This document shows, one piece after another, positions 1 to 62,293 of a stretch of DNA of 64,000 nt (its first letter is position 1; every line of letters begins with the position of its first letter). Below the pieces are notes generated by a model. The model was not told where the DNA came from, searched no databases, and saw nothing but the letters and a program-made list of their open reading frames with translations. The DNA comes from Desulfuromonadaceae bacterium. Its GTDB lineage: Bacteria; Desulfobacterota; Desulfuromonadia; Geobacterales; Pseudopelobacteraceae. The stretch is taken from contig JAQTZV010000014.1 in NCBI GenBank assembly GCA_028687585.1, forward strand, positions 24,718 through 88,717, in the 5' to 3' direction. The position numbers and the translations under genes were made by a program.

Positions 1-1855
1 TTGCGGAGGTGACGGAATAACCAAGCATTTCAAGTAGTTCCTGCCCCAACTCAGCCAGCACTTTTTCGTCATCTACAAAGAGAATCCGTTCACTGCCGCC
101 ACAAAACGATTCGTCATCCGGTAGCTCGTGAGTGATCTCATCTGATATCTTCGGCAGTAAAATGGTAAAGACGGTGCCCTGTCCAGGTTCGCTGTAAACG
201 CTGATAGAACCCCCATGACTCTTGATTATCCCCTGTGATACCGCCAGCCCCATTCCGGTACCTTCCCCTGCTTTTTTAGTAGTGAAATAAGGATCAAAAA
301 TGCGTTCCTTAACGGACGCATCCATTCCATGGCCGGTATCGCTGACCGTTATCAGCAGATAGGGACCGGGTGTCAATTCGGGGTTGGCTGAAGTCAGCGG
401 GTCATCGTTCTTCACATCCGACAGCGAGACTTCCAGAACCCCGCCATGGTCTTGCATGGCATGACCAGCGTTGGTACCCATATTCATCAACACCTGGTGC
501 AGTTGGGTCGAGTCGGCCAGAACGGTGTCCTCATTCGGAGTGGTGCTGATCTGTTGGTTTATCTCGATAGTGGTCGGCAATGCTGAACGGAGCAGCTTGA
601 AAACCTCCTCAATAACGGCGGCAACCTGTACCGGTTTCTGCTCCTGCTCACCCTGGCGGCTGAAAGCAAGGATCTGCCGCACCAATTCCCTGGCGCGTAA
701 ACTGGCCTCCAGCACATGAGCCAGGTCGCGTGCCATCGCATCGTCACTGGCCGCTTTTCGCTGTGCCATCTCCGTATAGCCGATGATCGCCGTCAGGATA
801 TTATTGAAATCATGAGCGATACCGCCGGCAAGCGTTCCGATGGCCTCCATCTTCTGAGATTGTCGCAACTCTTTTTCCAGCTTCTTCAGGTTGGTAATAT
901 CGCGCCCTTCTGCGATGAGCTGAATGACGCGATCCTGTTTGTCGAAAACCGGCTTCAAGGAGAAATCTATGCAATAGAGTCTTCCATCAGGGCCAAGATA
1001 GTTCGCTTCAAACCGTACCAGATTGCCTGCGGCAGCAATGGCGACTCCGTCGCGTACTTTCACGGGGAGTTCCGCCGAATATGTCCACCAGGGGGTCTCC
1101 CAGAACAATTCACCGATTACATCCGGCGCAGAGACGCCACAGAGATCCAGAGCGGTCTGATTGGCCTCCAGCAGAATTCCTTCGGGTGTTAACAGCCCCA
1201 TCAACTGGAAGGTCTGTTCAAAGATGATGCGGAGCTTCTGTTCATTCTTCTGCAGTGCAGCTTGTGTCTGTTGCAGTTCGTCTATCTTTTCTTCCAGGAA
1301 CAGCGCCTGATCCTGAAGTTGTTCCTGGGCCATCTGGCGCTCGGCGATCTCATCTTCCAGTACCCTGTTTGCAATCGACAGATCTGTCGTGCGCTCTTCA
1401 ACCCGACGCTCCAGCGTTTCATTCGCTTCCTGAAGTTTTCTGGTCAACTCCCGGATGTGAAGATGCACGGCTATTCGGGCCAGTAACTCCTCCCGCTGGA
1501 ACGGCTTGGTGATATAGTCAACCGCGCCGACTTCAAGTCCTTTTACCTTGTGCCCGGTTTCGGCCAGCGACGTCATGAATATCACCGGAATTTCATGCGT
1601 GCTTTCCAGCAACTTTAGTCTGCGACAGGTTTCAAAACCGTCGATCCCCGGCATCATGACGTCAAGCAGAATAAGATCCGGCCGGGCATATTCAGCCCGT
1701 TTTATGGCACTTTCGCCATCCTCGGCCACAAGAATGGTATAATGCATCTCAACCAGACAGTCGCGTAACACAGACAAATTGTTGGGTTCGTCATCGACCA
1801 TCAGGATGACCGGAGTCCTCTGCACTGATTCAGTCGGCAACATATCGGCACTCAT
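1..1855 (-). CDS. Hybrid two-component protein (receiver, coiled coil, PAS, HisKA, HATPase, start of a second receiver); 3' end runs off the window
   Basis: Open-ended, so absent from the ORF track. My minus-strand translation from ATG 1855 gives MSADMLPTESVQRTPVILMVDDEPNN...DVMMPGIDGFE (receiver), GGIAHDFNNILTAIIGY (H-box), GTGMGLAVSQGIIKSHGGSI (G2 box), then ILFVDDEKVLAELG. ATGA start/stop overlap with the upstream gene at 1852-1855. Confidence 0.85.
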   Translation of the reverse strand, partial: MSADMLPTESVQRTPVILMVDDEPNNLSVLRDCLVEMHYTILVAEDGESAIKRAEYARPDLILLDVMMPGIDGFETCRRLKLLESTHEIPVIFMTSLAETGHKVKGLEVGAVDYITKPFQREELLARIAVHLHIRELTRKLQEANETLERRVEERTTDLSIANRVLEDEIAERQMAQEQLQDQALFLEEKIDELQQTQAALQKNEQKLRIIFEQTFQLMGLLTPEGILLEANQTALDLCGVSAPDVIGELFWETPWWTYSAELPVKVRDGVAIAAAGNLVRFEANYLGPDGRLYCIDFSLKPVFDKQDRVIQLIAEGRDITNLKKLEKELRQSQKMEAIGTLAGGIAHDFNNILTAIIGYTEMAQRKAASDDAMARDLAHVLEASLRARELVRQILAFSRQGEQEQKPVQVAAVIEEVFKLLRSALPTTIEINQQISTTPNEDTVLADSTQLHQVLMNMGTNAGHAMQDHGGVLEVSLSDVKNDDPLTSANPELTPGPYLLITVSDTGHGMDASVKERIFDPYFTTKKAGEGTGMGLAVSQGIIKSHGGSISVYSEPGQGTVFTILLPKISDEITHELPDDESFCGGSERILFVDDEKVLAELGQELLEMLGYSVTSA

Positions 1856-4179
1856 TTCCCTTCTCCTCTGTACTGTTCCACCAGTGCGAGAATTGCTTTG
1901 GCCTTGAATCCTCCGGCCAGCTCACGCAGTTTCGCAGCGAAGCTCCGGTATATGACATCTCTGGACTCCAGTTCGTTGGCCCAGACTTCAATTTTCAACA
2001 TATCGCCCATCATGGCCAATTCATATAACTCTTCCAACTTTTCTGCCGCAGGCGGCACCAGTTCTTCTTCACTATCTGCACTGTTTCGCCCGCCGTTCAG
2101 ACGCCCCGGTTCCGTCAGCACTGTTTTCCATTCGATCCCGAGCAGTCCCTCGATTTTTTCGAGCAGCAGATCAATCCGGATCGGTTTGATGACAAAGTCG
2201 TCGCACACGGCAATAAACGCCTCCTTGAAGGCACTATCGGTTGCGGTAGCCGATGCGCCGACGATTTTACTGTCCGCCAACGCCAGGTTTTCCCTCATTC
2301 GTGTCGCTGACGCCAGCCCGTTCATCTCGGGCATCACAAGGTCCATCAACACCAGATCAGGGCGATGTTCCCCGGCACGCTCCAGCGCTTCCCGGCCGTT
2401 TTGAGCCGTATCGATCATGAATCCGAGCGGTTCCAGCAAGGATACCAGCATCGAGATGTTGCCGATGTTGTCATCAACCACCAGTATTCTCTTCCGTGCT
2501 CCATGGTAGCCGACAACGTGGATATCACTGCTCTCCAGCGCGATTTCATCATCGACCAGCTCCGGCAGAGCCACCTCCACCCAGAATGTGCTCCCTTTGC
2601 CAAAAACGCTCTCAACACCCATTCTTCCATGCATCAGCTCCAGCAGGCGTTTCGTGATATTCAATCCCAGGCCGGTGCCTTCCGATACCTGCCGGTCGGA
2701 TACAAGCTGAGTGAACGGCTCGAATATCGTCTCCAGTTTGTCGGCCGGTATGCCGATGCCGCTATCGATAACTTCGCAGCGGAACAGGCCGCCCCCTGTC
2801 TGGTCATAGTGTACCCGCATGGTAACGCCACCCCGGCGGGTGTACTTGACCGAGTTACTGAGCAGGTTGAGCAGGATCTGGCGGAGTTTGCGTTCATCCC
2901 CCCGCACGTACGACGGCAGCGGGGTGGCGTCTTCGTACTCAAAACGGAGATCTTTTTCTTCGGCATGTAATCTGGTCAGATTGAATACCTGACGCACAAG
3001 AGCAGGAAGGTCGAAGACAACTTCTTCTACTTCCATCTTGCACGCCTCGATCTTGCCCACGTCCAGAATATCGTTGATCAGCGTCAGCAAATGTTCCCCG
3101 CTGCCGCGCATGATGCCGAGCTGCTGACGCTGGCTGTCGGTCAGATTTTCGTGATGTGTCATAATCTGTGCGTAACCGAGGATCGCATTGAGCGGCGTGC
3201 GCAGCTCATGGCTCATGCTGGCCAGAAAATCGCTCTTGGCACGATTGGCGCTCTCGGCGGCTTCCTTGGCGCTTTGCAGCTCAACGACCCCCTGAGCAAA
3301 GGCTCCGGCCAAATTATTAACCCCTGCTATCAGATTGCGCCACTCCCCTTCAAACTGTCCCGCATCGCTGCGGCTGTCCAGATGTCCCGCCTGTACCGCA
3401 ACAATAAGCCCATCGGTCTCCTGAAGTACCTTGCGAATAGTATGGCGCATGGCAGAGAATGAACGGGCCAGGATGCCCACCTCATCATACTGATGGATTT
3501 CGAGCTCGCGGCTGAAATCTCCATGGGATACACCGTCTGCCATCTTGACGATCTGGCGCAGAGGGCGGGTGGCCACACCCATCAGAAAAAAGGCCGCGAT
3601 ACAGCTTGCCATGGCAAAAGCTAACGACAGCAGTACTCCGCGCACGACGATGCGCCGCTCGTTCTCGTGGAGATATAATTTGGAAAAACCGATCCTGATC
3701 CAGCCGATTGTCTCCTTTACCTTCTCGCCGCCATCAATACCACTGATGATGTTGAAATCATCCTTCATCTTTTCAGTAAAGACCGGAGCATAAAAGACGA
3801 AGGCGTCCTGCTCTTCGGACATGGAGAGCGCCGTAGTTGCAGGAGGGGTGCTCAGATGACGGTATATCGGCTTACCGTCATGAATCAGCGGCATCATTTT
3901 GGAGTCGTAGAAGGTGACATCAGCCACCTCGGTGTTGGCTTTGAGGAATGTTGCGGTGCTCTTCAGCAGCTCGGGATTGCCGGAGAGGATCGGCAGTTCA
4001 CCGGTCTTGGTCGCCAGGGTGGTGATCGCTTCGGCGCGTTTGATGATTTCGCTCCGGATAACCCCCTTGCCGACCCGGATTGATTCCCAGGTATGGATGA
4101 ACGACATCATCAGCAGCAGCGGGACCATGAAGAGCAGCGCCTTGATACGAAAGGTCATTATCGGCTTCAGCCTGTTCAT
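1852..4179 (-). CDS. Hybrid sensor histidine kinase (TM, periplasmic domain, HAMP, HisKA, HATPase, receiver, C-terminal helical Hpt-like tail)
   Basis: 775-aa ORF with SHELRTPLNAILGY H-box, GTGLGLNITKRL G2 box and a receiver (ILVVDDN...DLVMPEMNG). Confidence 0.9.
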   Translation of the reverse strand: MNRLKPIMTFRIKALLFMVPLLLMMSFIHTWESIRVGKGVIRSEIIKRAEAITTLATKTGELPILSGNPELLKSTATFLKANTEVADVTFYDSKMMPLIHDGKPIYRHLSTPPATTALSMSEEQDAFVFYAPVFTEKMKDDFNIISGIDGGEKVKETIGWIRIGFSKLYLHENERRIVVRGVLLSLAFAMASCIAAFFLMGVATRPLRQIVKMADGVSHGDFSRELEIHQYDEVGILARSFSAMRHTIRKVLQETDGLIVAVQAGHLDSRSDAGQFEGEWRNLIAGVNNLAGAFAQGVVELQSAKEAAESANRAKSDFLASMSHELRTPLNAILGYAQIMTHHENLTDSQRQQLGIMRGSGEHLLTLINDILDVGKIEACKMEVEEVVFDLPALVRQVFNLTRLHAEEKDLRFEYEDATPLPSYVRGDERKLRQILLNLLSNSVKYTRRGGVTMRVHYDQTGGGLFRCEVIDSGIGIPADKLETIFEPFTQLVSDRQVSEGTGLGLNITKRLLELMHGRMGVESVFGKGSTFWVEVALPELVDDEIALESSDIHVVGYHGARKRILVVDDNIGNISMLVSLLEPLGFMIDTAQNGREALERAGEHRPDLVLMDLVMPEMNGLASATRMRENLALADSKIVGASATATDSAFKEAFIAVCDDFVIKPIRIDLLLEKIEGLLGIEWKTVLTEPGRLNGGRNSADSEEELVPPAAEKLEELYELAMMGDMLKIEVWANELESRDVIYRSFAAKLRELAGGFKAKAILALVEQYRGEGK

Positions 4180-4255: not shown

Positions 4256-5137
4256 TCATGGGTAGACTCTTTTGGTCATGCGCATGACCTCATCCGGAAT
4301 GCTGATGCGCATCTTGCGGGCCGTATCCATATTCAGGAACAGCTCGAACTTGCGAGGGGGCAAAGCCGCCAGCTTGCCAACACTCCCGCTCTTCAGCGCA
4401 GTGGTGGCATATTCGCCGATAATCATGCCGACATTGACCATGTCCACTACCAGCGCCAGCAGCGCCCCCTCCCTGACGTGCCGCTCGGAAATACCCATTA
4501 AAGGTATGCGCCTTCGGAAGGAGAGGAGATACGCTTCCTCCATGGCGGTCGAGGTCATGACTCCGCTATCCGGCAGGAGCAGGATAGCGTCGATATTCTC
4601 CAGATTTTTGACGGTGTTGACGAACTCAACCGTATTCCTGACGGAGTGGGAGAAGGTCGGAGCGGAGACATTATTGGCGAGAATGTTCAAAAAATCGTAG
4701 CTGGCCACCACCGCCATCCTCTTGAGGGACGGAAGATGTTTTCGCACCAGTTCGGCGTACTCGCTGGTCGGGGTCGCCATATAGAAACCGATGGTATTGG
4801 GGCGGTTGACAGCTGGCGGAGTCACCACCATGTCATAGATAACCGGGATGAATGCGGGAAGTGTCAGCGCCTCGGCCAGCGCCTCACGCCCAAGAGCGAT
4901 CACTACTCGCGCATCCTCCTGCTGAAGCAGTGCGGCCAGGTTGCCGCGCACCTCAGCGGGAGAATAGGTTTTTGTGGTAGCGTGCAGAGTCTTGTGCAAG
5001 CCGTGAGTAACTTCGATAACCGGTTTGAGCTGGGCATCGGCGATGATCAGCACATCTGCCGCCTGGCATGGTATGACGCTCAACAGGATGCAGAGCAGGA
5101 TATAACGGAGGGTATGGTGCACAGGTCGCTTTCTCAT
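4256..5137 (-). CDS. Periplasmic ABC-type substrate-binding-like protein (probable sensor partner of the kinases)
   Basis: 293-aa ORF with signal peptide (ILLSVIPCQA/AD), directly upstream of the hybrid kinases on the same strand. Family assignment is from overall resemblance only. Confidence 0.55.
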   Translation of the reverse strand: MRKRPVHHTLRYILLCILLSVIPCQAADVLIIADAQLKPVIEVTHGLHKTLHATTKTYSPAEVRGNLAALLQQEDARVVIALGREALAEALTLPAFIPVIYDMVVTPPAVNRPNTIGFYMATPTSEYAELVRKHLPSLKRMAVVASYDFLNILANNVSAPTFSHSVRNTVEFVNTVKNLENIDAILLLPDSGVMTSTAMEEAYLLSFRRRIPLMGISERHVREGALLALVVDMVNVGMIIGEYATTALKSGSVGKLAALPPRKFELFLNMDTARKMRISIPDEVMRMTKRVYP

Positions 5138-5409
5138 GAGAAATTAAAGTCCGGCAACTATAGGGATAAACAAACCAAATATCAATAAAAACAACGCAGT
5201 AATTTTTTAATTGCGACCAAATGGCACACAACAGCTTCTCGGCAGCGTTTGGGATATGCCGTTATTTAAAACAGCAGTTCCAAACTGCAGCAACAAAATT
5301 CACAATTGGTGAGATTATCGGTGCAGTTGAGGATAAGTTGTATGTAATTATTTAGCCAAATCCCGTTGTTAATCCATCTCATTATTTTTTAAAAGCGAGT
5401 TTTAATCGC

Positions 5410-5438
5410 TTGACAAATACATTTTATATGCATATAAA
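5410..5438 (+). promoter_or_regulatory. Sigma-70-like promoter, TTGACA-N17-TATAAA
   Basis: TTGACA at 5410-5415, a 17-nt spacer, TATAAA at 5433-5438. It lies about 120 nt upstream of the small peptide ORF in an AT-rich gene-free region. Confidence 0.45.
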
Positions 5439-5560
5439 CGCGCGTCCTTTTTAATTAATGAATGCACGGCAGTTTTTGTCAATAATACATATTTTACCTC
5501 TGACGGGGGAACGAGGCCGTCCCCTGCGGTTACATCACACGGAAAAGGAGAGAACCGAAC

Positions 5561-5662
5561 ATGAAAAAAAGTACTTTGGTTGTTCTGGAAAAAGGGAACG
5601 ATTGCGCATTCGAAGGGGAGATGGGCGCTTGCTGTATAATGTCTTTCACCCTGCTTATGTAG
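5561..5662 (+). CDS. 33-aa putative RiPP precursor peptide MKKSTLVVLEKGNDCAFEGEMGACCIMSFTLLM
   Basis: Hand-translated; below the 60-aa ORF-track cutoff. AGGAG at 5546-5550 sits 10 nt before ATG 5561, TAG at 5660-5662. Three Cys. Lies immediately upstream of a radical SAM/SPASM gene on the same strand. Confidence 0.6.
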   Translation: MKKSTLVVLEKGNDCAFEGEMGACCIMSFTLLM

Positions 5663-5688
5663 CCTATTGAGTGTATCGATGCACCGGA

Positions 5689-5714
5689 GGGGGGGGAGTA
5701 ATCCCCCCCTTTTT
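5689..5714 (+). terminator. Intrinsic terminator/attenuator hairpin between precursor and maturase
   Basis: G8 (5689-5696), loop AGTAAT, C7 (5703-5709), T5 (5710-5714). Confidence 0.6.
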
Positions 5715-5805
5715 GTATGTAACATACCCGTAACAGCGACTTCCCCACAATCCCTTTACACCCTGAAGGGTGCCTACAGGCTTACTACTCCTCCGGAGAC
5801 GCGAC

Positions 5806-7107
5806 ATGCAGCTATCTACCTATCTAAAAATCTACCCCTGTCCGGATCAGCCGGGGATGAACCTGGTGTACTCCACGCTCCGCTCTTCCGTCGTGCTGCT
5901 GCCGGACGACCTGCTGGAGGCGGCCCGTAATAAAACGCTGCCGGATGAAGAGCTCGAGACTCTGACAAAGCTTACTATCCTCACTCCGGACAGAGCTGTC
6001 GAGCGGGAGTGGATGCTGACGATTTTCGACACCCCCCGCCGCAGCACCCCGTTCAGCGCGATTGTCGTGCTCAATCTGGATTGCAATCTGGCCTGCCCCT
6101 ACTGTTATGAAGAGTCGTTCCGTGACAAGCGCTATATGGGCGCCGGGACCGCGGCGCTGCTGGTGGAGACTATCCGTCGAGAGAGAATTGAAAAAGGGCA
6201 GCCGGTCAGACTGACCTTCTATGGCGGCGAACCGCTTCTCTCCCTTGACCTGATCCGGGCCATCTCGCTGCCGCTGCGGGAAGCGGCGCTGGAGGCGGGC
6301 GTTTCCTACCGTTTTTCGCTGGTCAGCAACGGCACACTGCTGAATCGTGCCTGTGCCGAAGAGTTGGTCGCATTGGGGCTCAGTGGCGCCAAGATCACGA
6401 TCGACGGTCCGTCCGAGCTGCATAACTCGAGCCGCCCCTATCTCTCCGGGAACGGTAGCTATGAGACGATCGTAGGCAACGTGCTCGACATCTTTGACAT
6501 TGTCCCGCTGCAATTGGGAGGGAACTTCAGCCGCGACAACTATCGTGATTTTCCCGGCATGCTCGATGATCTGCTGGCCCGCGGCATTGACCCCGCCCGG
6601 ATCGGCGCGACGCTGTTTGCCCCGATTACTCCCAAATCGGGAGAACGGACCCTTTCGGACTTCAACACCGGCTGTGCCTGTTCGTATGAGCCGTGGCTGA
6701 TGGAGGCCGGAGTCTGGCTGCGCGAAGAGACCCTCAAACGGGGCTTCCCGGCTCCCCGGCCAAAGTTGTCGGCCTGTATGGTCGAACTGGAGAACGACCT
6801 GGTAATCACCTGCGACGGTTCGTACTACAAATGCCCGGCTTTCATCTCCCGCCCTGAGCTGCGCATCGGCTCGCTGGCCGAGGGGCTCCGGGATTATCAC
6901 GGCTCTCACAACATGGATCTCTGGAAAACGGAAGAGTGTCTGGAGTGCGCCTACCTGCCGATCTGTTTCGGAGGCTGCCGCCAGTTGACGCTGCTGCGCA
7001 GCGGTGAGATGAATGAAGTGGACTGCCGCCGGGAATATTACGATACGGTGCTGGAGCGGGTGGTCAGGCAGGATCTTGACTATCAGCGGACAAAACGGGA
7101 AACATGA
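5806..7107 (+). CDS. Radical SAM/SPASM-domain peptide maturase
   Basis: CNLACPYC (CxxxCxxC) at 6082-6105. C-terminal Cys-rich region CACSYEPW...CMVEL...CDGSYYKCPAF...CLECAYLPICFGGC is typical of SPASM auxiliary clusters. Preferred start is ATG 5806 with GGAG at 5795-5798; the track start at 5770 is GTG. Confidence 0.88.
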   Translation: MQLSTYLKIYPCPDQPGMNLVYSTLRSSVVLLPDDLLEAARNKTLPDEELETLTKLTILTPDRAVEREWMLTIFDTPRRSTPFSAIVVLNLDCNLACPYCYEESFRDKRYMGAGTAALLVETIRRERIEKGQPVRLTFYGGEPLLSLDLIRAISLPLREAALEAGVSYRFSLVSNGTLLNRACAEELVALGLSGAKITIDGPSELHNSSRPYLSGNGSYETIVGNVLDIFDIVPLQLGGNFSRDNYRDFPGMLDDLLARGIDPARIGATLFAPITPKSGERTLSDFNTGCACSYEPWLMEAGVWLREETLKRGFPAPRPKLSACMVELENDLVITCDGSYYKCPAFISRPELRIGSLAEGLRDYHGSHNMDLWKTEECLECAYLPICFGGCRQLTLLRSGEMNEVDCRREYYDTVLERVVRQDLDYQRTKRET

Positions 7108-7128
7108 ATTAATCAGCTCATCCGTAAA

Positions 7129-7167
7129 TAAAAAAGACCGCCGGGGGGTAGCCAGGAGGTCTTTTTT
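7129..7167. terminator. Bidirectional terminator shared by the convergent maturase and TonB-receptor genes
   Basis: A-run 7129-7135, stem AGACCGCC / GGAGGTCT with one mismatch, T-run 7162-7167. Confidence 0.5.
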
Positions 7168-7185
7168 ATTGAATTTACATGTTTT

Positions 7186-9171
7186 TCAAAACTTGAATCG
7201 CACCCCTCCCTCAACCCAGCGTCCCGGGTTCGGGTAGACCGATAAAGTGTAGTAGTTGCTGCCGAAGATGTTATGCAGCGTCAGGAACGTCTCCACTGCG
7301 TTCGTCTCGTCAAGGCGGAACTTTTTCGTCGCGGTCAGATCCCAGATGAAGTTGTCATACACCGGATCGGCATAGGCCGGCATGGTGGAAGCGAGATCCC
7401 ACCACACATATCTGCCGGAGAGCAGGGCGGTGAAGGAACGGCGGTCGTCGTACTTGACCCCGATCAGCCACGAGTAGTTGACATAGGAAGGATCGTCATG
7501 GCTGTTCTGTACCGTGTCCCCGGTGACGCGGGCATAGGCGTGCCCCAGCTTGAGGGAGAGATTATAGAAGGGGACGGTATCGAGTTCCAGTTCATACCCC
7601 TGGCGGGTAATGTCGTCCTGGTTGATGGCTGTTGTCGAGGAAGACGAATTAACTTGCGTGATAGCCTTGCTGGTCTCATGGCGGAACAGTGTCCCTTTCA
7701 GGCTGACCAGATCTGCCAGGCCGGATTCGAGGCCGACCTGGTACGACCAGCCGTATTCGGCCTTCAGATTCTTGTTGGCGGTGAAATAGGGTCCGCCGCC
7801 GGCGAGATAGCCGAGCGGCGGCGAAGAAAAACCGCGTGCTGCCGAGGCGCGTGCCACGGTATGCTCTCCCAGTTCCCAGGTAGCACCGAGGCTCGGACTG
7901 ACAAAAATGCCGAAGAAGCTGTCGTGGTCGAGCCTGATACCGGGAGTAACGGCGAATGGGCCGAATGCAACCGTGTCGTTGGCAAAAACAGCCCACTTAT
8001 TGACAGTGGAATTGATCAAAACGGAGGCGGGCAATCCGGCGTTCTGGAAGAGCGGCCCGGCGTCGGTGGTCTGGTCCAGGGTGCCGTGGCTCCGCTCCCC
8101 GCCAACTGTGAGGGTCTGAATGCCGCTGTTCCAGGTGGCGCGCAAGTTGGCGCCAACAGTCTGTTCGTCGGTTTTGTTCCGGATGCGCAGTTGGCCGGGA
8201 GAGGGGGGGTATGATGGCAGGAAGTATACGGGCTGATCGAATCTGGATTTGAGCAGGTGTACGCCGCCACGCACAGTCAGTTCAGGAGTGGCGCGGTATT
8301 CGAAGGTTCCGTTCAGGAACTGATTACGCAGCTGTGACCTGCCGCTGATAAAAAATGCCGGAATCTCACCTTCAGTTATGTCCGGGTTGCTGAAGCCGCC
8401 GCTTACGTTGATGTCAAGATCGCGGCTGGGGGTCAGGAGCAGCTTGCCGAAGACGCTGCTGCGCTGGTAGTCACGATTGTTGCGCAGACCGTCCGACTCC
8501 AGTTGCCCGGCGTAGAGGAAGTAGCCGAGCGGGCCGTTCTTGCCGCGCAGTTCGGCTGCCAGATCGCGGGACTTGGCGGTACCGTACGAGCCGCTCAGCA
8601 TGCCGTTTGGGGTGGCGTTATCGCCGGTGCTGCGGGTGATGATGTTGATTACCCCCCCAAGCGCCGAGCCCCAGGCCGAGGAGGCGGCCCCCTTGATGAT
8701 TTCGATCCGCTCGACGATCCTGACCGGAATGAAGCTGGTTTCGCCATTGCCTCCGGAGAGGAAATTTATCGGCATGCCGTCCAGCAGCACCGTCACATGG
8801 CGGTTTTCAGACCCCTGGATATGGAGCTGCGCGCCTGAGACAAAATCGTTGGTTGAAAAGTCCACGAAGAGGCCGGGGAGACGGGTCAGCACCTCAGCCA
8901 CGCTGTTGACGTTCATCGCCTCGATCTCTTTGGCGGTGATGACGCTCATGTTCTCGGCGGTCTGCATGATCGGCTTTTCGCTGCGGGTGGCGGTCTGGAC
9001 GTACAGCTCCTTCTCTTCCCAGAACATCAGCAGATCGCTGTTATCGGCTGGGCCGTTCTGCGCCACTACCAGATTCGGCCGGGATGCAGGCGTCTCCTCA
9101 CCAAGAACTGTCCCGTTACCCCCAAGAGTAGCGATAACAGACAGACATGTTATAAATGTTCGTTTATTCAT
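7186..9171 (-). CDS. TonB-dependent outer-membrane receptor
   Basis: Signal peptide, plug-like N-terminus (NMSVITAKEIEAMNVNSVAEVLTRLPG), long beta-barrel, C-terminal ...GGVRFKF. Preferred start is ATG 9171 (MNKRTF) with a GGAGAGGG SD. Confidence 0.9.
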   Translation of the reverse strand: MNKRTFITCLSVIATLGGNGTVLGEETPASRPNLVVAQNGPADNSDLLMFWEEKELYVQTATRSEKPIMQTAENMSVITAKEIEAMNVNSVAEVLTRLPGLFVDFSTNDFVSGAQLHIQGSENRHVTVLLDGMPINFLSGGNGETSFIPVRIVERIEIIKGAASSAWGSALGGVINIITRSTGDNATPNGMLSGSYGTAKSRDLAAELRGKNGPLGYFLYAGQLESDGLRNNRDYQRSSVFGKLLLTPSRDLDINVSGGFSNPDITEGEIPAFFISGRSQLRNQFLNGTFEYRATPELTVRGGVHLLKSRFDQPVYFLPSYPPSPGQLRIRNKTDEQTVGANLRATWNSGIQTLTVGGERSHGTLDQTTDAGPLFQNAGLPASVLINSTVNKWAVFANDTVAFGPFAVTPGIRLDHDSFFGIFVSPSLGATWELGEHTVARASAARGFSSPPLGYLAGGGPYFTANKNLKAEYGWSYQVGLESGLADLVSLKGTLFRHETSKAITQVNSSSSTTAINQDDITRQGYELELDTVPFYNLSLKLGHAYARVTGDTVQNSHDDPSYVNYSWLIGVKYDDRRSFTALLSGRYVWWDLASTMPAYADPVYDNFIWDLTATKKFRLDETNAVETFLTLHNIFGSNYYTLSVYPNPGRWVEGGVRFKF

Positions 9172-9329: not shown

Positions 9330-10079
9330 TTACTCTTTGATATCGCCTTTAATTCCGATGGTAACCTCCTGGTACGGAATATCCCTGCCGGATGCCGCCA
9401 GAGCCTGACGAGCCGCCACTGCGATGCCGCCGCAACAGGGTACTTCCATTTTCAGAACCGTTATGCTTTTCACGTCGGATTTGCTGAACAGTTCTGTCAG
9501 TTTCTGCTGATAGAAGCTGTTGTCATCCAGTTTCGGACACCCCATGACAACCGCTTTACCCGTCAAGAAATCATCATGATACCCGGCGTAGGCGACCGGT
9601 ACGCAGTCGGCGGTGATCAGCAGATCGGCACCCTGGAAATACGGGGCGGTGGTGGAAACCAGATGCAACTGCACCGGCCATTGCGCCAACTGGCTCTGAC
9701 GACTTCCGGCCGCAACGGCGAGGGTCGTTCCCTGCGGACGATCAAAACTCATGGCGCGGGAGCCGGGACAGCCGCCGCCATGGTGATGCAACGCGGCAGG
9801 CGGCCGGGGCGCCTGCTGATGAACCGGAGCCGGCTTACCCAGCGCCGCCAGATGCTGTTCAACGGCCACCTCATCAAACTCATCCGCCTCCCGCTCTTCA
9901 ATGTGAATGGCGTCACGCGGACATTCACCGAGGCATGCTCCCAGCCCGTCGCACAGATTGTCTGCCGACAGCACCGCTTTGCCGTTGATCATCGTGATGG
10001 CGCCTTCGGCGCATGACGGCACGCAGAGTCCGCAGCCGTCGCATTTTTCCGGATCAATAGTTACAATTTTTCTCAACAT
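9330..10079 (-). CDS. 4Fe-4S dicluster domain protein with Cys/His-rich C-terminal domain
   Basis: CDGCGLCVPSC and CDGLGACLGECP ferredoxin motifs, HHHGGGCPG, C-terminal VPCCGG. Preferred start is ATG 10079 (MLRKIV) with an AGGGAGA SD. Confidence 0.75.
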   Translation of the reverse strand: MLRKIVTIDPEKCDGCGLCVPSCAEGAITMINGKAVLSADNLCDGLGACLGECPRDAIHIEEREADEFDEVAVEQHLAALGKPAPVHQQAPRPPAALHHHGGGCPGSRAMSFDRPQGTTLAVAAGSRQSQLAQWPVQLHLVSTTAPYFQGADLLITADCVPVAYAGYHDDFLTGKAVVMGCPKLDDNSFYQQKLTELFSKSDVKSITVLKMEVPCCGGIAVAARQALAASGRDIPYQEVTIGIKGDIKE

Positions 10080-10110
10080 GGCAGTTCTCCCTTTGGTCGA
10101 AGTTGGTATA

Positions 10111-10455
10111 TTAACAAAAGTAATGCCAGAGATAATCAAGCCTGCCCCGCATCACCAGCCTGCGCCCCGCATAGGACATGATTTCCCGGACTTTCTCCCG
10201 GCGCGGCTTGTCATAGCAGTGAATCCGGCACTGTTTGCAGGTCGGCTTTTCCGCTTCCAGCGGACAATTCAGCCGTTTGGATATGGCATATTCCAATAAT
10301 GATGCACATTCCGGACAGAGCAGACGTGCTTCCAGCTCAGCGGGAAGATCAACTGCAGCGCGGCCGGCGCCATGATGTTTGGCTTCGCAGTAAACTTCAA
10401 CAAACTTTCCGAGTAGCTTGATGTCTTTTTTCTGTGCTCTGGTGATGGTTTCCAT
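10111..10455 (-). CDS. Nitrous-oxide-stimulated-promoter (YgbA-like) family protein
   Basis: 114 aa, Cys-rich pattern ...VYCEAKHH...LCPECASLLEYAISKRLNCP...KPTCKQCRIHCY, recalled as the YgbA family signature. Confidence 0.7.
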   Translation of the reverse strand: METITRAQKKDIKLLGKFVEVYCEAKHHGAGRAAVDLPAELEARLLCPECASLLEYAISKRLNCPLEAEKPTCKQCRIHCYDKPRREKVREIMSYAGRRLVMRGRLDYLWHYFC

Positions 10456-10549
10456 GCAGGTGATAATCCTTTGTTTTCACTCTGTAATACATGACCAAGG
10501 TCAATTATTCGCGGAAAACCGGATGGCAGGATGGAATCTTCGCCCAGTA

Positions 10550-12544
10550 TTATGAGCGCTGCTGATTCAGAGGAAATATCACGGTAAACAGGGAACCGGT
10601 TCCCGGTTCACTCCAGACGGTGATCATCCCGCCATGGTTCTTTGCTATGCCGTAGGAAACGGACAGGCCAAGTCCGGTTCCGGTTGGTCTGGTGGTAAAA
10701 AACGGCGTGAATATATCCTTGATCTGCTCCGGCGGGATGCCGTCCCCGCTATCCCCGATCTCGGTCCGGCAAACCGCCGCTTCGTTGTCAATAGCGGTCC
10801 GGATGGTCAGAATCCCTCCGTGATCCATGGACTGCACTGCATTCACGATCAGATTGGTGAACAGTTGGCAGAGCTGGTTTTCGTCACCCTCGACAGCCAC
10901 ATCCCCCATGCCGTATTCGCGCCTGACTTCGATGCCTGTCAGCGGCACATGGTGTTTTACCTGGCGCAGGATATCATCCAGAACCAGATCAAGTGCCACA
11001 GGCTTGAGAGCTTTGCGCTGATGCCGGGCAAACGAGAGTAGATTACCGACGATACCTTCCACGCGCGCCACCTGATGCGCAATGATTTCTGCCTCTTCCC
11101 GATTCGGATGCCCGGAGTGCAGATCAAACAACAGCACCTCTGCATTGCCCCGGATAATCGCCATCGGATTATTGATCTCGTGGGCGACTCCGGCCGCCAG
11201 TTCGCCGACGGCGGCCAGTTTTTCCGCCTTCAGCAACTCTCCCTGGGTCTTGAGCAACAGCAGGTTTTTGTCCTCCAGCTCGGCAGTGCGTTCCTGGACC
11301 TTGGCTTCGAGGCCTCTGTTCAGTTGTATAATGGCATATTCCCGCTGTCTGAGGACAGCGGTCATGGCATTGAATTCCTCTGCCAGCTCGCCGATCTCAT
11401 CCCCGGATGATGTTTCTATCCGCAGGTCCCGTTCTCCGGCGGAAAACCTCTGCACCAACCTTTTCAGCTCCCTGATGGGGCGTGAGAGCAGATTGCCGAT
11501 GTAACCGGAGACGGCAATACCGAACAGCGACCCTGCCAAAAGAACACCGGTAAAGAGCAGGCCGACCTTTTTCTTCAGGGCTGTATGCGGCTGTTCCAGC
11601 ATGCCGACGTACAATGATCCGATGACGCTGCCGGTCAGATCGAAAATCGGCTCATAGGCGGTGAAGTACCAGTCGTTGACGACAAAAGCCCGATCGACCC
11701 ACTTTTCTTTGTTCAGGTTCACGCGGTTATACACCTCGGCGGAGAGCCGGGTGCCGATGGCCCTGTTTCCCTCCAGGGTGTGGACGTTGGTGCTGATGCG
11801 GGTATCATCCAGAAAGATGGTGGCGGTGCCCACATCCTTCCCCTTGAACTGGACCCCCTCGAACACAATCTTTTTAATCCGGTCCACGACCGTATTGTTC
11901 CTGTTCAGCAGCACGCCACCGTACAGAGCGCCAACGACATACCCCTGACTGTTCCTGACCGGAGCGGAAGCGACCATTACCATGCCAAACGGCTCGCTTT
12001 TTTTACTCCCCGGCTTTGCCCGTTCGGTCGGGATCACGTCGATAACCGCCTGGCTCGCCAGGTTGTTTCCTTCGCGCTGCAGGCGCTCAGGAGAGAAGAG
12101 CTGACTCCCGGAAACGACTTCACCATTCAGCGCCCTGGCTATCAGAGGGTCCTTGTCGAGCAGTTCGCCGTAAGCCTTCGGATTACCGGCCCGGAACAGA
12201 ACCCGCCCGTTACTGTCCACTATTGTAAGTATATCCAGCTGTTCATTGGTAATCATGGCGGACAGCAGTGGGGCGATAATCTCCCGATTGCTGGTGGTGA
12301 CGGCATCCGCGGCATGCGGCATACTGGTGGAAAAGCGGATTACATCGCGAATATGGCTGATTTCGTTGGAATAGACTTCATGGGCCGAGTTGAGATCGGT
12401 GCGCACCTTTTCCTGGGCAAGCACATTGATGCGGGTGTTGATGATGTACATGCCGGCCAGCGAACAGAACAGGATGGCGACAAAAAGCGGCAGGAGCGAG
12501 CCGATCGTCAGTTTCTTGCGTATGGAGAGTCGGGGAAACGGCAT
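10550..12544 (-). CDS. Sensor histidine kinase with large periplasmic Cache-like domain, HAMP, HisKA, HATPase
   Basis: TM, about 300-aa extracytoplasmic region, TM, HAMP, GVAHEINNPMAII H-box, GTGLGLSVSYGI G2 box. ATG 12544 preferred; the track start is TTG 12550. Confidence 0.85.
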   Translation of the reverse strand: MPFPRLSIRKKLTIGSLLPLFVAILFCSLAGMYIINTRINVLAQEKVRTDLNSAHEVYSNEISHIRDVIRFSTSMPHAADAVTTSNREIIAPLLSAMITNEQLDILTIVDSNGRVLFRAGNPKAYGELLDKDPLIARALNGEVVSGSQLFSPERLQREGNNLASQAVIDVIPTERAKPGSKKSEPFGMVMVASAPVRNSQGYVVGALYGGVLLNRNNTVVDRIKKIVFEGVQFKGKDVGTATIFLDDTRISTNVHTLEGNRAIGTRLSAEVYNRVNLNKEKWVDRAFVVNDWYFTAYEPIFDLTGSVIGSLYVGMLEQPHTALKKKVGLLFTGVLLAGSLFGIAVSGYIGNLLSRPIRELKRLVQRFSAGERDLRIETSSGDEIGELAEEFNAMTAVLRQREYAIIQLNRGLEAKVQERTAELEDKNLLLLKTQGELLKAEKLAAVGELAAGVAHEINNPMAIIRGNAEVLLFDLHSGHPNREEAEIIAHQVARVEGIVGNLLSFARHQRKALKPVALDLVLDDILRQVKHHVPLTGIEVRREYGMGDVAVEGDENQLCQLFTNLIVNAVQSMDHGGILTIRTAIDNEAAVCRTEIGDSGDGIPPEQIKDIFTPFFTTRPTGTGLGLSVSYGIAKNHGGMITVWSEPGTGSLFTVIFPLNQQRS

Positions 12545-12546
12545 AT

Positions 12547-13929
12547 TCAAACGGCTTCGGCACTGTTCCTGGGGATGGTCAGGCCATAATCGGCAATCTT
12601 CCGGTCCAGCGTCTTACGGGTGACCCCGAGAATGCCGGCGGTCCGGCTTTTGTGATACGCATTCTTCTTCAATACCCGAAGAATGTGATCTTTTTCGACA
12701 CTCTCCAGCGAATCAGTGCCATCGTCTGATAACGCCGTCCGAGCGCCTGTATCGGTGCGTATCGGAAGCAGATCGGCCGTTATCCGGTTCGATCCGGCCA
12801 GAATAACCGCCCGCTCTATGATATTCTCCAGTTCCCTGATATTTCCGGGCCAGTGGTAATCTTTCAAAAGCCGCAGGGCGTCGTCGCTTATGGTATCGAC
12901 ATGTTTCTTCATCCGGGCGGAGAACCGCTTCATGAAGTGCAGAGTGAGCGGCACCAGATCTTCCTTGCGCTCCCGTAACGGAGGTGGTGTGAGGGTAATG
13001 ACGTTGAGTCGGTAAAAGAGGTCTTCCCGGAAGCGCCCACAGGCAACCTCCTTCTCCAGTTCCTTGTTGGTGGCTGCGACAATGCGAATATCGCAGGTCA
13101 TAATTTCGGTCGCGCCGACGGGAGTAAACTCCCGTTCCTGAATAACTCTCAGCAGTTTCGCCTGCAGGGCCAGCGTCATGTCTCCAATTTCGTCCAGAAA
13201 CAGGGTGCCCCCGGTAGCGGCTTCGAGCAGCCCTTTCCGGGATGTCATCGCGCCGGTGAACGCTCCGCGCACATGGCCGAACAGCTGACTTTCCAGAAGG
13301 GTGTCGGTCAGAGCGGCGCAGTTGATGGTCAGGTAACGCCTGTCTCTTCTGGCACTGTTGAAATGTATCGCCCGTGCGATCAACTCCTTGCCGGTGCCGG
13401 ATTCGCCCTGGATAAGAATGTTTGCCTCGCTCGCCGCCACCTGCAGTGTCATGTCATAAACTTTGCGATAGCTGCTGCTGGTGAAGATGATCTCTCCGGG
13501 AGCGGTGCTGCGGATCAATTCCTCCGTCAGTCTCCGATTCTCCTTCAGCAATGTCTCCCGCTCCAGAGCCTTGTCGAGAACACCGAGAAGTTTTTCAATC
13601 GGAAACGGTTTGGTGATGTAGTCATATGCCCCCAGCTTGATCGACTCCACCGCTGAATCGATGCTGCCGAAAGCGGTCATGATCACTGCCGGCAGATCCG
13701 GCCGCAGTTTACGTACCTTCCGGAGCGTTTCGATACCGCTGATCCCCGGCATATTGATATCCTGAACCAGAAGATCCGGCATATAGGCGGTATCGGACTC
13801 AAATCGATCCAGCAGGGTCTGTCCGTTGGTGTAGGTTTCCACGCTGTAGCCATGGGAATGTAAAATTTTCTTCAAATAACGCAATATCTCTTTTTCATCA
13901 TCGCAGATGATGATTTTTCCTTCAGGCAC
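12547..13929 (-). CDS. Sigma-54-dependent response regulator (NtrC family)
   Basis: Receiver (DINMPGISG), AAA+ domain with GESGTGKE Walker A and GAFTGA sigma-54 contact motif, C-terminal HTH. GTG start with an AAGGAG SD. Confidence 0.9.
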
Positions 13930-28682: not shown

Positions 28683-28979
28683 TTCGTTCTCCCTTCGCTG
28701 TTCGATTCAATTCTGATCGTATTATCCATTATTCCCTGTTCAAATCGCCTTGCGCCAGGCCAGCTGCTCTTCAAGCCAGGAATAGAAAGCAACGGTGTCA
28801 GGGCTACAGTGCGGCCTGGCAAGGTCGCATAATCTAGCGGGTGAGAATCCCGCCCCGGAAGGTTGGCCAGCCACCGGGTAGCTAGTCCTTGGAGGCTGCG
28901 TGGTAACATTCAGCTTTAAGCGTAGGACAGCAAGCAGGCAGGCCGTAAGCCGCAAGGTTGAAGGGAATGAGCCCCGTAA

Positions 28980-29140
28980 GGAGAAACATATGGAGAAACA
29001 TATGGGGTCAGCCCTTGACACGAGACAAACTGGCTTTCAGGGAGAAACATATGGGGTCAGCCCTTGACACGAGACAAACTGGCTTTCAGCGGAGAAACAT
29101 ATGGGGTCAGCCCTTGACACGAGACAAACTGGCTTTCAGC
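28980..29140. repeat. Tandem direct repeats: three copies of 49/50 bp plus a 12-bp partial copy
   Basis: The unit GGAGAAACATATGGGGTCAGCCCTTGACACGAGACAAACTGGCTTTCAG(C) occurs at 28992-29040, 29041-29090 and 29091-29140, identical apart from the terminal C, which copy 1 lacks. A partial GGAGAAACATAT lies at 28980-28991. Confidence 0.9.
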
Positions 29141-62218: not shown

Positions 62219-62293
62219 GGGCGTTTAGCTCAGCGGGAGAGCACTGCCTTCACACGGCAGGGGTCACTGGTTCGATCCCAGTAACGCCCACCA
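62219..62293 (+). tRNA. tRNA-Val (anticodon CAC)
   Basis: Hand-folded cloverleaf: acceptor GGGCGTT/AACGCCC, D arm GCTC-AGCGGGA-GAGC, anticodon arm CTGCC-TTCACAC-GGCAG, T arm ACTGG-TTCGATC-CCAGT, encoded CCA. Confidence 0.95.

Follow-up and report, generated by a model that had tools for sequence, protein, structure and literature searches.

A geopeptide-type precursor peptide and radical SAM/SPASM maturase with conserved receptor, binding-protein and kinase neighbours in a Desulfuromonadaceae bacterium

What do a 33-residue reading frame and the radical SAM/SPASM gene downstream of it make in this Desulfuromonadaceae bacterium, and do the two genes work by themselves? Both lie in the window, the whole 64,000-nucleotide stretch of DNA that was analysed. 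An earlier note had seen in them a minimal, uncharacterised RiPP cassette. The pairing of a precursor peptide with a radical SAM/SPASM maturase is borne out by the profiles TIGR04280 and TIGR04085, and by 77 of 81 related loci. The word 'minimal' is not: a TonB-dependent outer-membrane receptor (TBDR), a PF04392 protein and a hybrid kinase flank the pair here and in most of the 81 loci. Gene content and conservation indicate a five-gene module of peptide, maturase, TBDR, PF04392 protein and hybrid kinase, not a two-gene island. The locus is read here as a geopeptide-type RiPP system with leader-guided modification, whose product may be re-imported and sensed by the adjacent receptor, binding protein and kinase. 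Taken as a whole, this reading is considered moderately probable.

The precursor gene occupies positions 5561-5662 of the forward strand and translates as MKKSTLVVLEKGNDCAFEGEMGACCIMSFTLLM. A leader motif, LVVLEKG (residues 6-12), is followed by a spacer, the pair Cys24-Cys25 and a hypervariable tail of eight residues, IMSFTLLM. A Shine-Dalgarno sequence, AGGAG (5546-5550, forward strand), stands 10 nt 5' of the ATG, and (A/G)GGAG is kept across the orthologue alignment. The databases hold this exact peptide only as an unnamed Logan gene call. The NCBIfam and Pfam profile libraries gave no match to it, and the curated geopeptide model TIGR04229 found nothing even at E<=10, so that its cutoff of 30 bits is not reached. 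The peptide of a close orthologous locus (L001) is likewise missed. Geotalea/Geobacter peptides score 40.5, 35.4 and 31.3 bits with the same model; those of Geotalea carry the label 'geopeptide' in RefSeq.

Comparison of related loci indicates that this small hidden reading frame is a real, unannotated gene and a divergent member of the geopeptide family. (i) A small ORF of the same architecture is found upstream of the maturase gene, on the same strand, in the 77 loci mentioned above. It consists of a leader h-x-h-h-[D/E]-x-G, then a CC pair, seen in 76 of the 77 peptides, and a hypervariable tail of 7-11 residues; in some loci the peptide gene is doubled or tripled in tandem. (ii) A regular expression for the peptide pattern matched once in the six frames of the window; related loci, 667 kb in all, gave 81 matches, of which 76 lay at the expected place. 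(iii) An HMM built only from distant peptides, 61 in number, placed the window ORF at the top of 1803 six-frame segments (E=1.7e-6). The next best segment (61219-61317; 0.068) was rejected as spurious, lying in another frame inside a 778-aa ORF. (iv) Selection on the leader is purifying, and the tail is hypervariable. In a set of 11 close orthologues, codon changes in the leader fall chiefly at the third position (111/108/392), with 327 synonymous and 207 non-synonymous differences, against 98 and 320 in the tail. No core residue is conserved besides the CC pair. The earlier note had proposed that the positions of all three cysteines be compared in related loci. Cys24 and Cys25 proved to be family-wide, whereas Cys15 was dropped as a family feature because it is kept in the nearest relatives only.

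Several RNA and transcription elements accompany the gene. The peptide-gene promoter (5410-5438, forward strand) consists of TTGACA (5410-5415), a 17-nt spacer and TATAAA (5433-5438); like the ORF and its Shine-Dalgarno sequence, it had been described in the earlier note and is present in the sequence. In 15 orthologous loci, conservation extends over the -35 box, the -10 (of TGnTATAAA type) and an upstream tract rich in A/T. A consensus promoter scan does not list this promoter, only because the scan demands that the -10 hexamer end in T. A conserved 5'-UTR hairpin follows at 5500-5529 on the forward strand (CUGACGGGGGA...UCCCCUGCGG); it folds at -16.3 kcal/mol, and RNAalifold gives it nine pairs, two of them with compensatory changes. 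Distant loci have shorter hairpins with covarying stems upstream of the Shine-Dalgarno sequence. Rfam, applied to the whole window at gathering threshold and to 5140-5900 at E<=5, returned no match in the 5' UTR or spacer. Between peptide and maturase lies an intrinsic-terminator-like hairpin with a U-run (5686-5717, forward strand; -24.2 kcal/mol), which was also picked up by the consensus scan, at 5686-5712. The hairpin and T-run described at this place in the earlier note are present (z = -3.6), and the element recurs: terminator-like hairpins separate peptide and enzyme genes in 44/77 loci, compared with 27/1540 shuffles (1.8%), and a hairpin meeting strict criteria is absent in 33/77. A probable bidirectional terminator (7127-7170) lies between the convergent maturase and receptor genes. 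Its folding energy is -21.4 kcal/mol on one strand (z = -3.9) and -19.3 kcal/mol on the other (z = -4.4), and it is not among the elements listed by the consensus scan.

The maturase gene (5806-7107, forward strand) encodes 433 amino acids. Its product matches NCBIfam TIGR04280, 'geopeptide radical SAM maturase', with 609.7 bits (E=2.9e-183; cutoff 400), the alignment running over residues 1-426 and profile positions 1-427 of 428. An identical protein in GenBank already bears the name geopeptide radical SAM maturase. The 'geopeptide' precedent raised in the earlier note is confirmed for the enzyme. The radical SAM domain (PF04055, 54 bits) contains the [4Fe-4S] motif CX3CX2C that had been recognized at 6082-6105 of the forward strand; its residues C93, C97 and C100 are invariant in 40 homologues. 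The SPASM profile suggested as a check likewise found its domain (TIGR04085, 52.1 bits), at residues 324-404 (6775-7017, forward strand). Eight further cysteines are invariant (C290, C324, C343, C378, C381, C387, C391 and C407). Those of the SPASM domain, with C290 and C407, would be enough for two auxiliary [4Fe-4S] clusters.

An N-terminal peptide-recognition element had also been suggested, and the AF2 model (pLDDT 85.5 for the whole maturase) agrees with this. Residues 1-75 (5806-6030, forward strand) are predicted to form an RRE-like domain of the order beta-beta-beta-alpha-alpha-alpha, with strands at 7-11, 18-23 and 28-33, helices at 34-41, 47-55 and 63-72, and pLDDT above 90. The RRE assignment is made from predicted fold only, because Pfam PqqD gives no match to this N-terminus. 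By sequence, the closest solved relative of the maturase is the thioether synthase CteB (E=1e-18; identity about 20%). Foldseek returns the same enzyme (5wgg/5why) as the best structure, in a near full-length alignment (E=3e-20, TM 0.66-0.69). Of the other NCBIfam families, PapB, the SCIFF maturase, QhpD and uncharacterised maturases of Cys-rich peptides score best, at 80-141 bits, each of them far below its cutoff.

The following course of biosynthesis is proposed. The strong sigma-70-type promoter would yield a short transcript for the 33-aa precursor. Precursor would exceed enzyme, because the hairpin and U-run would pass only part of transcription into the maturase gene. The leader strand (h-x-h-h-[D/E]-x-G, here LVVLEKG) would be bound by the RRE-like domain of the maturase, a step that is considered likely. 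The radical SAM cluster and the two SPASM auxiliary clusters would then modify the core at the near-invariant Cys-Cys, and the favoured product would be a peptide joined to carbons of its own short C-terminal tail by one or two thioether cross-links. For thioether chemistry at the CC pair the chances are judged even. It is argued by analogy only, because the tail has no conserved acceptor residue.

The same lack of an acceptor would suit another chemistry within the same system: conversion of one or both Cys to a thiooxazole, as by SbtM, formylglycine-type oxidation, as by anSME, or formation of a residue that is epimerised or C-C linked. The repertoire of SPASM enzymes is broad, and the maturase also matches anSME, TigE, ChlB, SuiB and EpeE significantly in structure. 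In Geobacter itself, the radical SAM/SPASM enzyme SbtM makes thio(seleno)oxazoles from Cys/Sec, forming a thiooxazole on Cys (PMC9204691). The SbtM family, however, is absent from the 25 best NCBIfam matches of the window enzyme. The best match in sequence and structure alike is a thioether synthase, CteB, and the best non-self families are Cys-peptide maturases, of which those with known chemistry form thioethers. A chemistry other than thioether formation is considered somewhat unlikely.

The second question concerns the genes on either side. A hybrid sensor histidine kinase is encoded at 1852-4179 on the reverse strand. Two transmembrane segments enclose a periplasmic domain of ~150 aa that resembles sCache_4 (a domain above threshold in the kinase of one related locus, L080). 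HAMP, HisKA, HATPase_c and receiver domains and a C-terminal tail of ~100 aa follow. Next to it, a gene for a periplasmic solute-binding-protein-like product (SBP) of family PF04392 (ABC_sub_bind; 50.9 bits) occupies 4256-5137 on the reverse strand. Its product has a Sec signal peptide, MRKRPVHHTLRYILLCILLSVIPCQA, and in many loci its gene and that of the kinase share 4 nt. At the window locus it has no ABC permease or ATPase gene beside it, and none is conserved in cis. On the far side of the cassette, the reverse-strand gene at 7186-9171 encodes the TBDR, with plug and beta-barrel; its start is likely the ATG at 9171. The closest solved receptors are PfeA/PirA, CirA and BtuB, with similarity mainly over the plug. 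As a clue to the ligand this comparison was rejected, because the matches are generic siderophore/B12 receptors and fall mainly in the plug.

Among the 81 loci, the cassette has a TBDR neighbour in 72, a PF04392 SBP in 69 and a sensor kinase in 66, the last count being possibly inflated because the kinase cluster was formed by single linkage on common domains. The neighbour genes fall into a few recurring layouts and are verified by Pfam in Nitrospirota, in other distant MAG loci and in Geotalea uraniireducens. Most further neighbour 'clusters' were rejected: the DNA is GC-rich, and they were the same genes read as ORFs in alternative frames. The genes that follow beyond 9204 do not share the conservation of the cassette; they are a ferredoxin-like gene, YgbA_NO, a second kinase gene and the gene of a sigma-54 regulator. 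A search for SBP homologues, aimed at triads that lack a cassette, returned close relatives only. The related loci conserve neither a protease nor an exporter in cis; a MOP-type exporter occurs in only two, those of Geotalea uraniireducens and Geobacter argillaceus, beside the peptide genes. The earlier statement that no transporter gene is present in cis is wrong, since a TBDR flanks the cassette.

The neighbours have also diversified together with the cassette. In nine of nine evaluable two-cassette genomes each cassette has its own receptor, and the receptor, binding-protein and kinase genes are duplicated with each paralogous cassette. The receptor (30-47% identity) and the binding protein (23-43%) have changed more quickly than the enzyme (49-59%). 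Enzyme and TBDR are correlated in their pairwise distances (r=0.80), as are enzyme and SBP (0.68) and TBDR and SBP (0.89), correlations that would also arise from co-inheritance alone.

For the product of the locus, the preferred reading continues as follows. The mature peptide would leave the cell via unlinked factors. The cognate TBDR would import it across the outer membrane, the periplasmic protein would bind it, and the binding protein would then signal to the kinase, much as LuxP does to LuxQ or TorT to TorS. The peptide might be a strain-specific signal or, loaded with metal, a carrier. This passage from export through re-import to sensing is advanced tentatively, at rather less than even confidence. 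That cassette, TBDR, PF04392 protein and kinase together form a self-contained circuit for making, releasing, re-importing and sensing the peptide, its hypervariable tail matched to a fast-evolving receptor and sensor, is a possible and somewhat bolder extension. We know of no described Gram-negative route of peptide sensing via a TBDR and a binding protein/kinase pair, and a search of the searchable literature found none. If the proposal is true, Geobacterales and Nitrospirota would have several private peptide channels per genome, for signalling or metal carriage.

A metallophore would use the same genes: a modified Cys-Cys chelator would be secreted, its metal-loaded form would be re-imported by the TBDR and handled by the SBP, and the kinase would tune expression to metal status. 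The sole difference from a pure pheromone is what the product carries. The vicinal Cys pair is the only near-invariant feature of the core, the gene set parallels methanobactin operons, a MOP-superfamily exporter stands beside the peptide genes in the two species named above, the closest solved receptors are those for siderophores and cobalamin, and the hosts are metal-respiring Geobacterales. Yet the likeness of the receptor lies mostly in a generic plug domain, an inner-membrane permease/ATPase is not conserved in cis, and the Cys sulfurs would be poor metal ligands if consumed in thioethers. Moreover, several divergent cassettes per genome fit signal channels equally well or better, and the ligands of the PF04392 members that have been solved are aromatic amino acids and not metal chelates (PMC10443332). 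Metal carriage is considered unlikely.

Alternatively, the product may stay inside the cell, and the triad may sense another imported compound and at most regulate the cassette. Intracellular action has been proposed for some SCIFF peptides, and two-gene radical SAM cassettes that lack transporters are common. The locus has no conserved exporter, leader peptidase or Sec/Tat signal for the peptide, and the shared divergent intergenic region would suit a purely regulatory link. On the other hand, loci from Geobacterales, Nitrospirota and other MAGs keep the triad beside the cassette, with several arrangements of the genes; every paralogous cassette has its own copy of the triad, which has diverged in parallel with it; and a hypervariable tail together with a fast-evolving receptor and SBP is a ligand-receptor pattern. 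Unrelated neighbours are thought distinctly improbable.

That the ORF is instead a Cys-sensing, trpL-like regulatory leader, in which ribosome stalling at the tandem Cys codons acts on the downstream terminator and through it on a Cys-rich Fe-S enzyme whose substrate is encoded elsewhere, would fit Cys codons about 50 nt before a strong and widely conserved terminator hairpin, but is very improbable: the leader motif is kept at the amino-acid level with mostly synonymous changes, the predicted RRE-like domain would need a leader-bearing substrate, the segment between CC codons and terminator is hypervariable and so would hardly allow a conserved antiterminator, the terminator is undetectable in 33/77 loci, and peptide genes are tandem in some loci. 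The centroid fold of the transcript, a single predicted structure, shows no antiterminator pairing over the Cys codons.

What is new must be separated from what was known. The geopeptide family is named and computationally defined, RefSeq has 'geopeptide' peptides and the maturase was already annotated, so that the novelty was overstated in the earlier note. In the searchable literature, there was no publication on geopeptide chemistry or role or on TIGR04280/TIGR04229, no paper on a Geobacter radical SAM precursor peptide with a TonB-dependent partner, and nothing relevant on PF04392 with TonB and kinase; matches to 'geopeptide' as a substring appear to be 'gageopeptide' (lipopeptides) and were set aside. 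Two points are new: the peptide clade that escapes the curated TIGR04229 model, and the conserved receptor/sensor neighbourhood, which was not found in that literature. TIGR04229 misses the whole clade, and its precursor genes therefore stand unannotated beside correctly named maturases; a broader peptide model would repair this. With a module that co-diversifies with it, the cassette is no longer an orphan 'two-gene RiPP' but offers a hypothesis, open to testing, of peptide signalling or metal acquisition in metal-respiring bacteria.

Among known systems, the geopeptide system of Geotalea/Geobacter (TIGR04229 and TIGR04280) is the closest. The window maturase belongs to it at equivalog level; the peptide lies directly upstream on the same strand with the same architecture of leader, CC and short tail; and Geotalea uraniireducens Rf4 has the same neighbours. 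The window clade (KKSTLVVLEKGNDCAFEGP.GACC and a hydrophobic tail) differs in being missed by TIGR04229, and in its extra Cys15, basic N-terminus and hydrophobic tail. The order of the genes is different too, the window cassette sitting between the SBP-kinase pair and the receptor. SCIFF systems, with CteB (5wgg/5why) and Tte1186, come closest in solved structure and sequence. They have the same succession of domains (RRE-like at the N-terminus, then the radical SAM core, last the SPASM domain and its two auxiliary clusters) and likewise a short Cys-containing peptide substrate encoded beside the enzyme. Identity is ~20%, however, and the SCIFF model TIGR03974 gives 79.5 bits against a cutoff of 425. 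SCIFF peptides have six Cys in about 45 residues and belong to Firmicutes; no TBDR, SBP or kinase module is known to us for them. The PapB ranthipeptide maturases and QhpD make Cys-to-Asp/Glu thioethers, with the Cys sulfur as cross-link donor. They are among the best sub-threshold families (NF047865, 119.8 bits; TIGR03906, 90.7 bits), but their cutoffs of 340 and 453 are far above these scores, and no Asp, Glu or Asn that could serve as acceptor is conserved in the geopeptide tail.

Two further systems resemble the neighbourhood. The mbn operon encodes the precursor MbnA, the enzyme MbnBC, the TonB-dependent MbnT, the periplasmic MbnE and the MATE exporter MbnM. Common to methanobactin and geopeptide loci are a short precursor that contains Cys, an enzyme to modify it, a dedicated TBDR and a periplasmic binding protein in cis, with a MOP/MATE superfamily exporter in two geopeptide loci. 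The geopeptide enzyme, in contrast, is a radical SAM/SPASM protein, enzymes of MbnB/MbnC type were not found in the conserved unit, and the binding protein is of family PF04392 and paired with a histidine kinase, not an importer. LuxP-LuxQ (AI-2) and TorT-TorS (TMAO) resemble the geopeptide loci in that a secreted binding protein is encoded beside a membrane hybrid kinase with a periplasmic domain; in the geopeptide loci the two genes often overlap by 4 nt. TorS and LuxQ are among the best family matches of the window kinase, because the kinase and receiver core is shared. The geopeptide-locus binding protein comes from another fold family (PF04392), and its locus differs from both in having a TBDR upstream in the same operon and a ligand that is presumed to be a peptide.

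With the window cassette, the known geopeptide family gains a new and divergent member. All elements described in the earlier note are found in the sequence: a precursor ORF of 33 aa (MKKSTLVVLEKGNDCAFEGEMGACCIMSFTLLM; 5561–5662, + strand), a Shine–Dalgarno (SD) sequence AGGAG 10 nt 5' of its ATG, a promoter TTGACA-N17-TATAAA (5410–5438, + strand), a G/C hairpin with a T-run between peptide and maturase (5686–5717, + strand) and a maturase ORF of 433 aa (5806–7107, + strand) with a CNLACPYC motif (6082–6105, + strand). When 16 orthologous upstream regions are aligned, they share a conserved −35 TTGACA, a −10 of the TGnTATAAA type and, further upstream, a tract rich in A/T. The consensus promoter scan does not list 5410–5438 because the tool demands T as the last −10 base.

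The geopeptide precedent named in the earlier note fits the enzyme. The maturase scores 609.7 bits against the NCBIfam model TIGR04280, 'geopeptide radical SAM maturase' (cutoff 400), and the SPASM profile TIGR04085 is also matched (52 bits). An identical protein from a Desulfuromonadaceae MAG already bears that name in GenBank. More than 1,100 homologues are found at E ≤ 1e-30, and the species-representative genomes contain 357 TIGR04280 hits. Eleven cysteines are invariant (C93, C97, C100, C290, C324, C343, C378, C381, C387, C391 and C407), a number sufficient for one SAM cluster plus two auxiliary ones. Among solved proteins, CteB, the thioether synthase for SCIFF peptides, is nearest in sequence (E = 1e-18). 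CteB is also the best structural match of the AlphaFold model (pLDDT 85.5, pTM 0.84), over almost the full length (E = 3e-20, TM 0.66–0.69), and is followed by anSME, TigE, ChlB, SuiB, SkfB and PqqE. Residues 7–72 of the model form three strands and then three helices, the predicted layout being that of a RiPP recognition element (RRE).

For the peptide, 80 loci retrieved by means of a maturase alignment were compared with the window, giving 81 loci. The peptide pattern comprises a leader motif h-x-h-h-[D/E]-x-G, 8–13 residues, CC, 7–11 residues and a stop. In 77 of the 81 loci the maturase is preceded by a small same-strand ORF of this pattern; in three others the upstream DNA is too short to judge. 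The fourth, L009, is the sole locus with enough upstream DNA in which no such ORF was found. Its maturase is preceded instead by an ORF (3599–3817; ...WQRNYYERVIRDDNELSRAREYIVSNPLKWELD) that, judged by eye, we take to resemble part of an IS200/RAYT-type transposase. Across the six frames of the whole window the pattern occurs once; the 667 kb of loci contain it 81 times, 76 occurrences being at the expected position. With an HMM built only from the 61 peptides of distant loci, the window ORF is the best-scoring of 1803 six-frame segments (E = 1.7e-6; runner-up 0.068). Leader codons of 11 equally long close orthologues vary chiefly at the third position (111/108/392 by codon position), with 327 synonymous versus 207 non-synonymous differences, whereas codons of the CC and tail are hypervariable (98 versus 320). 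Of the Cys positions, the CC pair is present in 76 of 77 peptides; Cys15 is confined to the nearest relatives. In L070 the peptide at the orthologous position (3619–3711) ends ...PTCWWCTCWLF, CWWC replacing the otherwise invariant CC. The other core positions are not conserved and show preferences only, for small residues at −1, +2 and +3 and for hydrophobic residues at +4 and +7.

The enzyme was already annotated; the peptide gene of the window clade is missed by the curated model. A profile search gives the window peptide no match to the peptide model TIGR04229, even at E ≤ 10. Geotalea and Geobacter peptides score 31–40 bits, other family members fall below the 30-bit cutoff and the window clade has no score. 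Geotalea peptides bear the RefSeq name 'geopeptide'; in the protein collection, the one exact counterpart of the window peptide is a gene call that carries no name. No paper on geopeptides was found in the searchable literature, which is no proof that none exists.

The terminator scan picks up the hairpin at 5686–5717, which has a folding energy of −24.2 kcal/mol (z = −3.6). In 44 of 77 loci the peptide stop is followed, after 20–30 nt, by a terminator-like hairpin and U-run, as against 27 of 1540 shuffled spacers, so that the proposed attenuator gains family-wide support. A second, 5'-UTR hairpin (5500–5529, + strand) shows two compensatory pairs in the window clade. Distant loci have a shorter hairpin just 5' of the SD, with stems that differ yet are complementary; it lies 10–35 nt upstream of the SD in L017–L079, and examples are CAUCCUUCGGGAUG and the stems CCUCC/GGAGG and CACCCC/GGGGUG. 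Rfam gives no match at the 5'-UTR hairpin, which may act in stabilisation, in processing or as a regulator site. The convergent maturase and receptor genes are separated by an A-run, a stem and a U-run (7127–7170). This element forms a stable hairpin on either strand (z = −3.9 and −4.4), probably as a bidirectional terminator, although it is not listed by the consensus terminator scan. Elsewhere in the window, Rfam matches comprise a group II intron D1-D4-6 (28844–29015, + strand; 63.6 bits, gathering score 49) and a tRNA gene (62219–62290, + strand; RF00005, 66.8 bits).

The cassette had been described as minimal, with no transporter in cis. Clustering of all ORFs of the 81 loci overturns this description: a TonB-dependent receptor (72/81), a PF04392 'ABC_sub_bind' periplasmic binding protein (69/81) and a sensor histidine kinase (66/81) recur beside it. 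In the window, Pfam places these at 7186–9171, 4256–5137 and 1852–4179, all on the − strand. Most frequently, kinase, binding protein and receptor share one strand, divergent from peptide and maturase; in a group including Nitrospirota the receptor is co-directional and directly 5' of the peptide, and in the window clade the cassette lies between binding protein/kinase and receptor. Overlaps of 4 nt are common between receptor and binding-protein genes and between binding-protein and kinase genes. Pfam backs the assignments in the window, in four distant MAG loci and in the genome of Geotalea uraniireducens, which was annotated independently. A Sec signal peptide is present on the window binding protein, and no ABC permease or ATPase recurs among the clustered ORFs of the 81 loci. 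In the kinase, two TM segments flank a periplasmic domain, followed by HAMP, HisKA, HATPase and receiver domains. A second PF04392 gene, besides the kinase-paired copy, lies between maturase and receptor in L003, L004, L008, L009 and L016–L020; the window lacks it. Past the window receptor, 9330–13929 (− strand) holds a ferredoxin-like gene, YgbA_NO, an sCache_3 histidine kinase and a sigma-54 response regulator, which are not kept with the cassette in other loci. The G. uraniireducens Rf4 locus (L081; CP000698.1, 2265586–2282896) is a tandem array of three geopeptide genes, each of 35 aa and almost identical, and two maturase genes, with the binding protein and receptor upstream. No paper linking receptor, binding protein and kinase to the cassette was found in the searchable literature; again, this does not prove that none exists.

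At least 10 genomes have two cassettes; in every one of the nine pairs that could be evaluated, both cassettes come with a receptor of their own. Identity within pairs is 49–59% for maturases, 30–47% for receptors and 23–43% for binding proteins. Pairwise distances over 61 loci correlate at 0.80 (maturase/receptor), 0.68 (maturase/binding protein) and 0.89 (receptor/binding protein). The module has therefore been inherited and duplicated as a unit, and its extracytoplasmic proteins, like the peptide tail, outpace the enzyme in evolution. A search of binding-protein homologues for the three genes without a cassette returned close relatives only.

The analysis shows which genes are present, to which family the enzyme belongs and that peptide, hairpin and neighbours are conserved; from there, the following route can be proposed. 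The leader strand would be bound by the RRE-like domain, and the CC pair would be the site of enzyme action, thioether link(s) to the tail being the most likely outcome. This chemistry is favoured by CteB, PapB and QhpD, the closest enzymes whose reactions are known, all of which form thioethers. The missing conserved acceptor residue is compatible with alpha-carbon (sactionine-type) links, and equally leaves room for other Cys chemistry, e.g. the thiooxazole formed by Geobacter SbtM (PMC9204691). The product would leave the cell through unlinked factors and be re-imported by its cognate receptor; the periplasmic protein would bind it and inform the kinase.

Export and re-import would be the same if the product were a metal carrier, a rather improbable variant proposed by analogy with methanobactin operons. 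It gains slightly from a PF01943 MOP-type exporter gene, which in L081 is divergent from the first peptide gene and otherwise recurs only in L027 (Geobacter argillaceus), in both loci beside peptide genes. Solved PF04392 proteins, however, are aromatic amino acid binders (PMC10443332), a preference that fits a peptide whose tail is aromatic or hydrophobic more readily than it fits a metal chelate. An intracellular role of the peptide, its neighbours being merely regulatory, is a shade less probable still, and is kept as a rival because no exporter or peptidase is conserved with the cassette. That the peptide is merely a Cys-sensing attenuation leader is unlikely, given a leader kept at the amino-acid level, hypervariability of the stretch needed for an antiterminator, the predicted RRE of the enzyme and tandem peptide genes in some loci.

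For the proposed export, re-import and sensing of a modified peptide, the conserved, co-diversifying receptor/sensor module provides a concrete lead, open to testing. Signalling from the binding protein to the kinase would follow a logic known from LuxP–LuxQ and TorT–TorS. Methanobactin operons encode the receptor MbnT, the binding protein MbnE and a MATE exporter; a receptor and a periplasmic binding protein are common to these operons and the geopeptide loci.
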